This document shows, one piece after another, positions 19,285-27,196 of a stretch of 39,033 bases of DNA; within the stretch, counting starts at the first letter, position 1, and each line of letters starts with the position of its first letter. This DNA comes from an uncultured bacterium (GTDB lineage Bacteria > Chlamydiota > Chlamydiia > Chlamydiales > JAAKFR01). The notes under the pieces were generated by a model. The model was not told the DNA's origin and ran no database searches. It saw nothing but the letters and a program-made list of their open reading frames with translations. Location of the stretch: contig CAZXQV010000001.1 of assembly GCA_964643195.1 (NCBI GenBank), positions 1 to 39,033 of the forward strand, written 5' to 3'. Position numbers and translations under genes: made by a program.

Positions 19285-19564
19285 CGCTTACCTCTAAACT
19301 AGTTTCGTATTTTCTTTAGTCCATTAATCATTCCCAGCGTCAACTCATCAACAGATTACATCCTACTTGATGATGGCGAAAGAGAGTTTACAATCGTCTA
19401 TAAAGCCTCTTTGGCTACTGTTGAATGAAAGCACTGAGTCCAATCATCCAGCACAATAGCAGAATGGTTTGTTTACAGCAAAGGTTGCGTTGAGTTTTTT
19501 TATGATCATTTCGAAGTATTTATCTGAGAATAGTTTGGATGTGTTTTATAGTCTATGCAGTTTG

Positions 19565-19713
19565 GATTGATAATTTTGCTTGCGCCAAAGCTCTCGGGCC
19601 TGAACGATCCTAAATGATTCAATGTTAAAAACATGTGTTCATTTAGGATCGTTCAGTCGGGAGACTTTAGCGTGGGTGAAACGCTGTAATAACTCACAAA
19701 TTGATTGGGTATA
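19565..19713. repeat. MITE-like repeat, degenerate copy C (core conserved, termini eroded)
   Basis: gcgccaaagctctcgggcctgaacgatcctaaatgattcaatgttaaaaacatgtgttcatttaggatcgttcagtcgggagactttagcgtgggtgaaacgctg aligns with the interior of copy A. The terminal 25-30 nt are only weakly recognisable. It abuts the stop of the OppA-like gene. Confidence 0.75.
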
Positions 19714-21261
19714 CTATCTTCTGGCCAGATTGGCATATTTGAAGTCGAGATCGCAGAGTTCAGAAATATAGACGTCATGCACATGTTCTTTCTTCAAGTA
19801 GCATGCAGTCGAATGATAAAGAGGCACAATCGGAAACTCCTGCAGCAAGAGTTCTTCAGCCTTCTTCAAATAATGCTCCCGCTCGTTCACATTCTCTTCA
19901 GCTTCGTCGAGTAGCGTGATAAAATCGGCACTTTCCCAGCCAGTATCATTATTGCCATATCCATTCTCATCATTGCGCTTGCGGTAAAGATCAAGAAGGC
20001 TTTTCGGGTCTAAAAGGTCGCTCACAAAGCCCCGCCCTCCCACCTGATAATCTCCTTTGGCTAAATGATCGAGAAAAACATTCCACTCATAGCTCTGTAA
20101 ATTGATTTTGATGCCGAAAGTCTCACTCCACTCTTGCTGCACAACCTGAGCTGTTTTCTGACTCTTCTCGCTCTTGCTGAAAATCAAAGAAATAGGAGGC
20201 ATCGTTTCTCGCGTCCATCCCTCTTCAGCAAGTGCTTGTTCAAAAAGTAGCTGGGCAAGCGTTGGGTTCCCAATCTCTGATTCCAAAATTGCAGAGGCAA
20301 AATCCTCTCCCATGCAAGGAGGAATCAGGCTTTTAGCCACGATCTGCCCCGCTTGTAATACATCATCAACAATCGCTTTGCGGTTGATCGCTAAAGCAAA
20401 CGCTTTGCGCATCTTGAGATTATGAAAAGGAGCTGCTGCGGTATTGAATTTATAGCAGAAGGTTCCAGCGATCGGCGTGATAAAGAGGTCGCTCCGCTCT
20501 TTCAATGTAGGTAATGCTTCAGGGGGAATACTCGAATTGGGAGAGCCAGCCCAGTCTAACTCGTTGTTTTCATACATGTTAAGTTCTGTATGTTCATCTT
20601 CGATCATTGTGATAACGATTTCTTCAAGTTGCACGGCATCCGCATCCCAATAGAGAGGATTTTTCTCCACAACCAGTTCGCTTGATTGCTCCCAATGGAC
20701 AAGCTGGAAAGGACCATTTGTTGCATCACCACCCATGTGGGGAATAGGTGCGCAGATCGGTTGAGCGATGAGTTGAAGAAAATAGGGCTGATGATGTTCG
20801 AGCTCAACGACCAATTTGTAAGGCCCTTCTGCCCACACAGCCACATCTTGAATTGGAATTTCGCCATTTTTGGCAGCCATAGCACCTTTAATCATAAAGA
20901 GGTGATAGGCGAGCTCTGCTGGAAAGTTGGGATGCAAGAGAGATTTCCAGGCAAATTCAAAGTCGTAAGCTGTTACAGCTGTTCCATCTGTCCAAACAGA
21001 GTGACGCAGCTCAAAAGTATAGAGTTTGCCTTTTTGCTCGACACTTTTTGCAACAGAGCAGACTGGGCCGTCCCTTGTCAGACGCATTAAACCATCATAG
21101 AGCATCTTCCCGGTAGTCATCGTAGGGATGTCGCGCACAAGGCGGGGATCTAAACTGGTCGGTTCACTATGAAAATTGAGTCGTAACTGCTGCTGTTTAG
21201 GAAGAGCAGAGTCCTTACAGCCAAGAATTAGGAGAAGAGGTAAAAGTAGAAGATATTTCAT
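19714..21261 (-). CDS. ABC transporter substrate-binding lipoprotein, family 5 (oligopeptide/dipeptide, OppA-like)
   Basis: Lipobox LLLILGC. It has the typical SBP-5 length (515 aa) and segments such as NPLYWD, ELNMYENNELDW, RKAFALAINR and GWxxD. Confidence 0.85.
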   Translation of the reverse strand: MKYLLLLPLLLILGCKDSALPKQQQLRLNFHSEPTSLDPRLVRDIPTMTTGKMLYDGLMRLTRDGPVCSVAKSVEQKGKLYTFELRHSVWTDGTAVTAYDFEFAWKSLLHPNFPAELAYHLFMIKGAMAAKNGEIPIQDVAVWAEGPYKLVVELEHHQPYFLQLIAQPICAPIPHMGGDATNGPFQLVHWEQSSELVVEKNPLYWDADAVQLEEIVITMIEDEHTELNMYENNELDWAGSPNSSIPPEALPTLKERSDLFITPIAGTFCYKFNTAAAPFHNLKMRKAFALAINRKAIVDDVLQAGQIVAKSLIPPCMGEDFASAILESEIGNPTLAQLLFEQALAEEGWTRETMPPISLIFSKSEKSQKTAQVVQQEWSETFGIKINLQSYEWNVFLDHLAKGDYQVGGRGFVSDLLDPKSLLDLYRKRNDENGYGNNDTGWESADFITLLDEAEENVNEREHYLKKAEELLLQEFPIVPLYHSTACYLKKEHVHDVYISELCDLDFKYANLARR

Positions 21262-25132: not shown

Positions 25133-25726
25133 ATGATCATTCTACTCAACCTCAGGGTCACCCTTTACCGTCTTGCACATTTCATCCACACACTCTTTTG
25201 CTATTATCCCAAATTTCTCTCGACTGACCTTAGAATGGCCTCTCAATATTTTTTGCGTGGGCCTTATAAGTTGACAGAAGAATACGGGGAAACCCCTCTC
25301 GCTACTCTCGATAAAATAGCACGTGAATTTCGAATACTTTCAAAAGATACAGTTCTAGAGCTCGGCTGTGGGACTGGTCGGACTTGTTTGTGGCTACGCT
25401 CTTTTATCGGTTGTCGTGTAATTGGCGTTGATCATTCAAAAGCTTTGATTCAAAAAGCTCAACGCTTGGGCTCTGCTGTGGAATTCCGCTGTGAAGATAT
25501 ACTGAAGACAGAGCTCAATGCTAATATTCTCTATTTTTATGGAACTTCATTTTCCGATGATTTTATTAGAAAGTTGACCAAGCGCATCAAGGATCAAAAG
25601 GTGATCACAGTGAGTTTTCCTCTCTGTGATTATGACAAACGCTTTCGTATTGAGAAAACAATCACAGGCAGCTTTCCTTGGGGAAAAACAGAAATTTACT
25701 TAAATGTAGTTCAAGAGTATAGCTGA
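25133..25726 (+). CDS. class I SAM-dependent methyltransferase
   Basis: Motif I VLELGCGTGRT, then GVDHS. The start is uncertain (ATG 25133 or ATG 25235). The last three codons, tat-agc-tga, lie inside repeat copy D. Confidence 0.7.
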   Translation: MIILLNLRVTLYRLAHFIHTLFCYYPKFLSTDLRMASQYFLRGPYKLTEEYGETPLATLDKIAREFRILSKDTVLELGCGTGRTCLWLRSFIGCRVIGVDHSKALIQKAQRLGSAVEFRCEDILKTELNANILYFYGTSFSDDFIRKLTKRIKDQKVITVSFPLCDYDKRFRIEKTITGSFPWGKTEIYLNVVQEYS

Positions 25727-25882
25727 ATCAGTAGAAAATTGCAGCGTTTCACCCACGCGAAAGTCTCGCGACTGAGCGATCCTAAATGACCCAATGTTAG
25801 GAACATGGGGTGATTTAGGATCGCTCAGTCGCGAGAGCTTTGGCGCGGTCAAACACTGCAATTTTGTACTGATTCAGCTATA
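25718..25882. repeat. 165-bp palindromic MITE-like repeat, full copy D
   Basis: Same termini as copy A (2 mismatches in the left TIR). The arms are swapped relative to copy A, while the central loop keeps the same orientation. It sits between two convergent genes, both of which end inside its termini. Confidence 0.92.
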
Positions 25883-27196
25883 GAGCTGACGAACAAGATC
25901 CTGCTCCATGCGCAGCAGTTGTGCTAAAATCTCATTCCAATTTTTGAACTCGCGTGTGCGCTCGTCAATCGTCCGTGTGCTCTCCTCTCCCTCTGTTCTG
26001 TGTAGGCTAGATTTATGTTCCGCCCAGGAACGCTCGCCTTCGCAGAAGCTAGACTGAACCTGACCCATCGCCTTATTCATCTCAGACATCGAGAAGCACA
26101 TCTTGCTAAGATTATCGAAGACTTTCGCACGTTTCATCCCCTCAAAACCACTATAGACCATTTTCAACTTATCCAGGATAAAATCTCCGCCGACGTGACC
26201 GATGATCGGCAACGCTCCAGAAACCAAACCGAGTACGCCTGCTCCTACACCTGCAAAAAGAAGCAATTTCGCTTGGCTTTTATACTGTTTGACAACACTC
26301 TCCATCCAGACGATTTGGTAGTGCCTCTCCTCGAGTCTTGAAGTGCGCTCCTGATGGTTGTCTTCCACTTCAAGCTTCATCAGCTCGATGAAAAGCAGCA
26401 TCACATCGAAATGAGAGACACGCACTCCAAAGAATCCTGATAGATCGGAATCTTGCATCATCGTGCGCAAGAAACTTTCAAAATCGGCGTTCTTGTTCGG
26501 CTGAAAACGTCTCTCCGCTACGCGCTCTACTTTCTCTGATCCAACGATCTTATTCTTTTTGTCCCGTTTGAAATTGCGCTTTTTATGTGGTGATTGTTCA
26601 GGATCCTTATTCAATCTGTGAAAGGGGCTATTTTCAGTAGATTGATTCTGAAGAGGCTGATCAGTTATTCCCCGTCTAGAAGTGCCCTTTTCTTCAGCTA
26701 TTCTGCTCTTTTCATGACGCAAACTACTCATCTGAGAGGGTGGTACAGTTTGAGATTTACCCAAGTTGGGCTGCGTAGATTGTTTTGCGACTTCAAAAGA
26801 GCGAGGTTCCCTATTCTCTTTTCCTAAGGACATTTTAGGGGGGTGGTCGGATTTAGAGGTGTGCGTTTTCGTTGAAATCTTTGAATCCTGGTCACTATGA
26901 ACTAACTCCACTTTAGAAGTTTTGGTTTCTTCAGATTTTGCTTCAGAGTTCTTCATCAGATCACTCTTAGAGTATTCCCTACTCTCTTTTTTCTCAGAAG
27001 TCCGCTCTTTACCGCCTTCTTGCTCGTTATCGATTCCAAAAGGGCGGCGTAGTACATCTTTTTGTTGGGGCGTAGGATTGCAAGTTATGATAATCGTTTG
27101 TGCTAGCACAGTCACCATGATCTCTGCAGGAGTGCGCACCCCTCCTTCTGGTGAAGGAGATGTAAGTTGTTGTGTTTGAGCTGTTTCTGTTATCAT
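25874..27196 (-). CDS. copD: T3S translocator, CopD/YopD-like (single central TM, C-terminal amphipathic/coiled region)
   Basis: Last gene of the chaperone-translocator operon. The N-terminal half is long, hydrophilic and low-complexity. There is one hydrophobic segment, LLLFAGVGAGVLGLVSGALPIIG, then a predicted helical tail. ATGA overlap with the upstream gene. The assignment rests on architecture and position, not sequence identity. Confidence 0.65.
   Translation of the reverse strand: MITETAQTQQLTSPSPEGGVRTPAEIMVTVLAQTIIITCNPTPQQKDVLRRPFGIDNEQEGGKERTSEKKESREYSKSDLMKNSEAKSEETKTSKVELVHSDQDSKISTKTHTSKSDHPPKMSLGKENREPRSFEVAKQSTQPNLGKSQTVPPSQMSSLRHEKSRIAEEKGTSRRGITDQPLQNQSTENSPFHRLNKDPEQSPHKKRNFKRDKKNKIVGSEKVERVAERRFQPNKNADFESFLRTMMQDSDLSGFFGVRVSHFDVMLLFIELMKLEVEDNHQERTSRLEERHYQIVWMESVVKQYKSQAKLLLFAGVGAGVLGLVSGALPIIGHVGGDFILDKLKMVYSGFEGMKRAKVFDNLSKMCFSMSEMNKAMGQVQSSFCEGERSWAEHKSSLHRTEGEESTRTIDERTREFKNWNEILAQLLRMEQDLVRQLYS

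Follow-up and report, generated by a model that had tools for sequence, protein, structure and literature searches.

Introduction

Among the repeats described so far, the Correia elements of Neisseria (Correia/NEMIS/CREE) come closest to the element analysed here. They carry terminal inverted repeats of the form TATAG[CT]GGATTAA..., use a TA target and occasionally end in CA (PMC2649163; PMC2229807). Their 155-bp form contains stop codons in all frames (PMC2229807), and a 26-nt inverted repeat, TATAG[CT]GGATTAAC/A..., has been described for Correia/CREE copies (PMC2649163). In Coxiella burnetii, copies of QMITE1 and QMITE2 extend 1-50 bp into the 3' ends of functional genes, and a QMITE in enhC provides C-terminal residues and the stop region (PMC5896051). 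The RPE of Rickettsia is a further palindromic repeat of an obligate intracellular bacterium that is found inside annotated genes, where it is read through in frame and becomes an internal protein segment. TA-duplicating IS families include IS630/Tc1-mariner and, in the IS5 group, IS427. A full-text literature search found no paper describing MITEs in Chlamydiae, a result that is not proof of absence.

The element described here resides in an uncultured member of the Chlamydiales, a phylum different from that of Neisseria, and works like a Correia element without being a member of the Correia family. Both have long inverted repeats, use TA as the target and carry TA at each end, both include an occasional CA-ended copy (here CATAGCTGAATCA, at the end of a topoisomerase I gene on contig C11), and no mobilising transposase is known for either. 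Stops in all frames are common to the 155-bp Correia form and the element here, and the sizes are ~105-157 bp and 165 nt, respectively. The published Correia core TATAGCGGATTAA matches the local TATAGCCGATTCA at 11 of 13 positions and the local TATAGCTGAATCA at 10 of 13 (PMC2649163). This likeness is limited to the first 13 nt; the remainder of the 26-nt Correia repeat (GTACAAAATTGCAG) differs and, unlike Correia elements, the chlamydial element is almost fully palindromic over its whole length.

Comparison with the other systems yields similarly partial likenesses. Like the Coxiella QMITEs, the element is a MITE of an intracellular bacterium situated at gene 3' ends, but the sequences and end structures are unrelated; moreover, QMITE copies can give rise to sRNAs and to longer basic peptides, whereas the element here adds only 0-10 residues. 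It shares with RPE a palindromic form and a location inside annotated genes, but instead of being read through it only caps genes, with stops within 19 codons. MITEs derived from IS630/Tc1-mariner or IS427 also combine TA target duplication with terminal inverted repeats, but no DDE_3 was found in this genome, and the DDE_Tnp_1 transposases of this genome and of its sister species have unrelated ends. By the generic features of a bacterial MITE, the element is shorter than 300 bp, non-coding, bounded by terminal inverted repeats and present in many copies, with TA duplication seen across species. Its behaviour is that of an ordinary MITE, not a new mechanism.

Results

A palindromic element at gene 3' ends

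The window (the whole stretch of DNA analysed, 39,033 nt) contains four copies of the element, namely copy A, a 48-nt fragment, copy C and copy D, all of which are located at gene 3' ends. Copy D (25718-25882) is a full-length, near-perfect palindrome of 165 nt with 81-nt arms that are 85% complementary; it starts with TATAGCTGAATCAGTA and closes with its reverse complement, both termini being perfect. This 16-mer has five exact matches in the window (14626 plus, 14790 minus, 17632 plus, 25718 plus and 25882 minus), compared with an average of 0.36 expected from the shuffled window. As RNA, copy D has a predicted fold of -121 kcal/mol (z = -18). The inverted termini of the element fit TATAGC[C/T]GA[A/T]TCA. 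Within 81-nt arms overall, the terminal inverted repeats are perfect over 16 nt in copy D and reach 97% over 36 nt in copy A. Reading inward from each terminus, stops occur in all three frames (TAG at +2, TGA at +6 and TGA at about +31 to +55), and every frame is closed within 19 codons from either end.

Copy A (14626-14790) is full length and intergenic between convergent genes, separated by 57 nt from one of their stops and by 14 nt from the other, that of the minus-strand gene at 14805. Copy C (19546-19710) is diverged, 68% identical to copy A, and 3 nt separate its right end from the stop of a minus-strand gene (19714-21261). The 48-nt fragment (17632-17679, plus strand) is a left half, 98% identical to copy A. 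Beside it, a minus-strand gene (17881-18306) encodes a 141-aa methyltransferase that looks 3'-truncated, its domain match running up to the last residues; the right half of this element and the end of that gene may have been lost together by one deletion.

Three genes end within the element

An earlier note on this DNA had reported that three genes read the terminal TAT-AGC-TGA of the element in frame as Tyr-Ser-stop, and the three ORFs are confirmed. A class I SAM-dependent methyltransferase gene (25133-25726, plus strand, 197 aa; Pfam Methyltransf_25/31/11, with Methyltransf_25 at 5e-11) ends in ...VQEYS-stop, the last three codons occupying 25718-25726. A CopD-like gene (25874-27196, minus strand, 440 aa), the last in a putative T3SS translocator operon and with orthologs in 23 of 24 genomes of the family, ends in ...RQLYS-stop at 25874-25882 (minus strand), an end identical at the protein level to the inferred native one. 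A CPBP/Rce1-like intramembrane protease gene (16852-17640, plus strand, 262 aa; Pfam PF02517, 2e-22) ends in ...SAHYS-stop, supplied by the first 9 nt of the 48-nt fragment. The CopD-like protein has no family match of its own in Pfam or NCBIfam, and its label is based solely on its neighbours, a TPR_3 chaperone and a weakly SseC-like protein.

In all three genes the codons T-AGC-TGA fall, at the DNA level, within the inverted repeat of the element; the 16 nt from the Tyr codon onwards are a perfect repeat terminus, and the repeat runs on for 48-165 nt. The methyltransferase and CopD-like genes form a convergent pair throughout the chlamydial family, and copy D alone closes both members. That its symmetric termini end both genes, as the earlier note had proposed, is borne out at the DNA level.

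Empty sites and native gene ends

For comparison we used relatives of the genome of the window (G000), including two of the same genus, G001 and G002, of which G002 is the sister species. In most relatives nothing lies between the methyltransferase and CopD-like genes, whose 3' ends overlap by 13-74 nt, and the copy D site is empty in G001. CopD-like orthologs without the element end in RQLYS, RQLYN, RALYQ or RMLYQ before the stop, and the G001 protein ends in RQLYS-stop, encoded by TAC AGT TAA. These ortholog ends indicate that Tyr-Ser-stop is native to the CopD-like protein and that insertion in its Tyr codon left the protein unchanged. Ortholog alignment, proposed earlier as a check, gave a divided answer: the CopD-like protein already ends in Tyr-Ser-stop without the element, the outcome that places the similarity in the gene, and the methyltransferase and CPBP orthologs do not end in YS.

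Taking the element and one TA out of G000 gives ...gttcaagagTAgagctgacg..., which is colinear with the uninterrupted sites of G001, G015, G003, G004 and G019, each with one TA there. Read on the minus strand, this single TA belongs to the Tyr codon of the conserved QLY motif. In the reconstructed empty site the methyltransferase ends in ...VQE-TAG, the CopD-like gene ends in CTC-TAC-TCT-TGA (LYS-stop), the two genes overlap by 10 nt, and the same TA starts both the plus-strand stop codon and the minus-strand Tyr codon. Removing both TAs instead would leave the CopD-like protein without its conserved Tyr, which supports the TA-duplication model. From this cross-species comparison of filled and empty sites, we infer that the element duplicates its TA target. 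The left copy of the duplication would be 25718-25719, formerly the TA of the methyltransferase stop TAG, and flank conservation ends exactly at the T of 25718; the right copy would be 25881-25882, which on the minus strand forms bases 1-2 of the CopD-like gene's native Tyr codon, within the QLY motif that holds a single TA in all relatives. The flanks of the genome copies show no direct repeat other than TA, and therefore any target duplication would be the terminal TA itself. At copy D a candidate duplication of 3 nt (GAG) was ruled out, other copies being without flank repeats. As for a same-species empty allele, the reconstructed 26-mer GTAGTTCAAGAGTAGAGCTGACGAAC is absent from the metagenome contigs.

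By the reconstruction, the methyltransferase, formerly ending in ...VQE-TAG, gained YS. CPBP orthologs end 2-4 residues before the G000 protein, at TAG or TAA, which fits ...SAH-stop plus YS, and the CPBP protease probably gained the same two residues. An OppA-like protein likewise reads ...SVRIR followed by YS in G000, compared with ...SARIR-stop (TAG) in G015, ...ARIQ-stop (TAG) in G002 and ...ARLL-stop (TAA) in G001, and for the NlpC-like and SET-domain proteins the ortholog ends lie within 1-4 residues of the reconstructed native ends. Among copies with both ends, reconstructed empty sites place the target TA in the native stop codon in four of five paired Tyr-Ser-stop cases, the fifth being the CopD-like gene. 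Where the stop is instead the TAG at +2, the protein is unchanged in two of three paired cases, and in a few insertions 8-57 codons are lost. Of the methyltransferase, CopD-like and CPBP genes, none has had a native C-terminus of any size replaced. The suggestion that native C-termini had been replaced in the manner of the Rickettsia elements is consequently not upheld: insertion left the CopD-like protein as it was, two added residues are the only change in the methyltransferase and probably in the CPBP protease, and there is no read-through.

Genome-wide distribution

The assembly comprises 1.39 Mb in 250 contigs (~80% complete, 43.8% G+C), and a simple longest-ORF procedure gave 1345 genes covering 92% of the genome. 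With up to one mismatch to the 13-nt core, the genome contains 218 termini and its reversed control 8. Both termini are present in about 29 copies of 140-200 nt, besides many shorter copies or solo ends; conservation begins abruptly at the first T of the terminus, and the older copies in this genome are 80-91% alike. Exact copies of the terminal 14-mer number 78 in this genome; the ~400 other Chlamydiota genomes that were sampled, both same-genus genomes among them, have 0-1 each, which is the level of the control. The element represents a lineage-specific burst.

A terminus supplies the stop of a gene, in any frame, in 35 of 218 cases (16%): 13 at TAG +2, 11 at TGA +6 (the Tyr-Ser-stop frame) and 11 deeper. 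Genes running into the element end 1-19 codons inside it and gain 0-10 residues. Ten of the 11 predicted proteins with a -YS C-terminus end inside a terminus. The Tyr-Ser-stop frame accounts for 5% of all termini and, among seven cases checked, all but the CopD-like gene fit a target TA in a stop codon. The earlier count of three in five window termini used as stops holds for the window, but these three, all in one frame, are an unrepresentative local cluster when set against the genome-wide figures; at genome rates the chance of at least three in five is 0.03 for any stop and 0.001 for the Tyr-Ser-stop frame, in a window chosen after the fact.

Some termini depart from this general picture. 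The topoisomerase I gene (G000 C11:6212-8719, minus strand) ends in ...GKHS-stop within the CA-ended terminus CATAGCTGAATCA. In 15 of 218 termini the preceding bases are GCTA, far more often than base composition predicts, as in ATCGGCTA directly followed by TATAGC; examples are G000 C26:4876, C125:2178 and C7:4859. Such GCTA-TATAGC junctions are elements inserted exactly at the terminal TA of another, giving tandem arrays. Predicted start codons lie inside an element terminus in six cases genome-wide, and by analogy with Correia elements the element may supply 5' ends or promoters too.

Proximity to stop codons compared with chance

The null consisted of TA sites drawn at random from non-coding DNA as a whole and from stop codons. 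With intergenic and stop-codon TA, 4.1% of sides are expected to fall on a stop-codon TA. Of all termini, 16% lie in the 20 nt following a stop, compared with 5.6% under the null (P = 2e-8), an enrichment of about 3-fold. Stop-supplying termini, also 16%, compare with 6-12% under the null, the range being set by the length of C-terminal tail deemed dispensable. Weighting the null by a weak T-A preference in the flanks (at -2 and -1, beyond which no longer target motif was found there) still leaves the near-stop enrichment unaccounted for. Termini face 3' rather than 5' gene ends by 119 to 82, and those of full-length copies by 35 to 17; a third of gene-facing sides face a 5' end.

Within the spacers that are occupied, five sides read into a terminus compared with 4.9 expected from a random TA, and eight lie within 20 nt of a stop compared with 4.4 expected. 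Positions within occupied spacers fit a random TA, and therefore the enrichment reflects which spacers are occupied, that is, short 3' ones, rather than an aiming at stops. The earlier idea of preferential insertion into gene 3' ends survives weakly, in the 119 to 82 excess and the roughly 3-fold enrichment near stops, but not in the placement of elements within the spacers hit. Likewise, in the genome-wide survey that had been suggested, coincidence with stop codons exceeds that of random non-coding TA but equals that of random TA within occupied spacers.

A second MITE family in the sister species

A separate palindromic MITE of 162 nt is present in the sister species G002, with TIR TATAGTCAAATCGGTTGA, TA ends, ~140 termini and near-identical copies; G001 has neither MITE family. 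The spacer between the methyltransferase and CopD-like genes, occupied by copy D in G000, holds one copy (L003:1317-1478, G002:C7) at a distance of 16 nt from the CopD-like stop. Another G002 terminus lies ~80 nt past the CPBP stop. This young burst shows the same 3' bias as that of G000 (36 to 16, ~2:1), whereas tight apposition to stops is seen in 2 of 36 sides in G002 and 21 of 35 in G000 (Fisher P = 6e-7). The contrast fits selection having filtered the older G000 copies, and a different target preference is also compatible with it. Cross-species hot spots were suggestive in three of five hand-picked loci, but were dropped after 31 G002 elements had been sampled without bias: the two families shared gene ends in 6 of 16 (baseline 0.22, P = 0.11).

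Search for a parent element

No transposase with matching ends was found in the G000 assembly, which is ~80% complete and in which repeats would often be unassembled. TIR pairs 0.9-3 kb apart enclose ordinary genes and no transposases, and DDE_3 (PF13358) was not found in this assembly. The DDE_Tnp_1 genes on C222, C247 and C151 were rejected as parents as they are without the TIR. The short contigs C247 and C151 carry transposase fragments beside other ORFs; judged by eye, those on C247 resemble a group II intron reverse transcriptase and those on C151 a primase/helicase-like protein. In G002 an intact IS of 1237 bp is present as two 100% identical copies on C3 (L074:1381-2617 and L077:1095-2331), encoding a 383-aa DDE_Tnp_1 transposase between TIRs CAGGGAAATTGCATGAAGAAAT; it too was rejected as a parent, its ends being unrelated to the MITE termini. 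A scan of the locus of a DDE_Tnp_1_2 match in G002 found no terminal motif of the G002 element.

Discussion

We consider it likely that the element is a non-autonomous, TA-duplicating MITE of Correia type whose association with gene ends is a by-product. This reading takes the structure, the reading frames, the empty sites in relatives and the genome-wide counts as observed, and adds TA duplication, the mode of transposition and a selective filter as deductions. The element would insert at a TA dinucleotide and duplicate it. With a terminus that reads inward as TA followed by TAG, C and TGA, any gene entering either end would be closed in 1-19 codons. Tyr-Ser-stop would arise when the target TA occupies codon positions 1-2, and in tolerated insertions of this kind the TA would nearly always come from a TAA or TAG stop codon; the stop would then become TAT (Tyr), with the element adding AGC-TGA. 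At copy D the target TA would have lain in the 10-nt overlap of the convergent genes, in the methyltransferase TAG and the CopD-like Tyr codon at once. After duplication one TA would have remained with each gene, each closed by one symmetric terminus, and the outcome would be a methyltransferase longer by YS and an unchanged CopD-like protein. In a compact genome, ~90% coding, purifying selection would keep insertions only in short 3' spacers, stop codons and last codons.

The strongest competitor, which we nevertheless regard as unlikely, is active targeting, in which the transposase mobilising the family would prefer sites at or just after stops, for example through a structure or a protein complex. 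It would accommodate the share of termini overlapping a stop or within 20 nt of it (32%, compared with ~11% under a random-TA null of non-coding DNA, stop and last codons), as well as the reproducible 3' bias in all termini, in full-length copies and in G002. The 15 termini that abut the end of another element point in the same direction, as does the resemblance of the copy D target CAGCTCTA to the TIR end CAGCTATA. Against this, placement within the spacers hit matches a random TA, no fixed offset separates stops from the terminus, and no flank motif is present save the weak T-A preference. The far closer approach of G000 copies to stops, which could itself be taken as a sign of targeting, is missing from the young, near-identical G002 burst, and that difference fits selection acting over time on older copies. 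A fuller version of this proposal, more doubtful still, is that the family truly prefers insertion at or within ~20 nt of stops, editing C-termini and separating convergent genes, and that the Correia-like core TATAGCnGAnTnA may indicate a transposase type shared with Neisseria. If so, the genus would be a natural system in which to find the transposase, as an old burst, a young burst of a sister family and neither are represented by one species each.

Compared with a tolerated by-product, the idea that the element has been domesticated, and is kept by selection between convergent genes as a stop combined with a hairpin that acts as a bidirectional terminator or as an RNA-processing site, is highly improbable. 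It would draw on the very stable symmetric hairpin that transcripts of both strands would form, on stops in all frames at both ends, on the 3'-end location of all four window copies, on the independent arrival of a different MITE in the same methyltransferase/CopD-like spacer of G002, and on the precedent of Correia elements as RNase III substrates (PMC2649163). The hairpin is strong, but its flanks (...GCTATAgagctgacg) lack a T-run, so that no U-tract would follow it; one small internal stem followed by a weak T-rich tail is the sole such case in the element, which is not a canonical intrinsic terminator. Rfam returned only sub-threshold matches to miRNA-precursor hairpin models, that is, a generic long hairpin. 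Nor does the distribution match a selected function, since G001 and most relatives lack an insertion at this site, their genes overlapping instead, the family was not found in the other genomes sampled, reuse of gene ends across species is not significant, and a third of gene-facing sides face a 5' end. The stop-plus-terminator cassette put forward in the earlier note thus finds no support in a lineage-specific element without a U-tract, inserted where relatives' genes overlap.

That Tyr-Ser-stop belongs to the genes themselves, with a coincidental likeness to the repeat terminus, is very unlikely: native CopD-like orthologs do end in ...QLY[S/N/Q]-stop, and their DNA on the opposite strand (TGTAGAGCTG or TGTATAGCTG) resembles the TIR, but all three G000 genes match a perfect 16-nt terminus that continues into 48-165 nt of repeat, orthologs of the methyltransferase, the CPBP protease and the OppA-like protein lack the YS ending, and 10 of the 11 -YS proteins of the genome end in a terminus, so this reading is refuted for the methyltransferase and CPBP and holds for the CopD-like gene at the protein level only.

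Insertion of a TA-duplicating MITE into tolerated sites leaves the current understanding of MITEs unchanged; its significance lies in the genome that carries it. The recurrent -YS protein ending of this genome is explained, as 10 of 11 instances come from the element, and many gene ends here are chimeric, which bears on the annotation of this MAG and on ortholog comparison. The locus also provides a worked example of how a TA-duplicating element with TA-TAG-C-TGA ends lands on a stop codon or a convergent overlap almost without cost. Together with the separate family of the sister species, it documents dense, species-specific MITE bursts in environmental chlamydiae.
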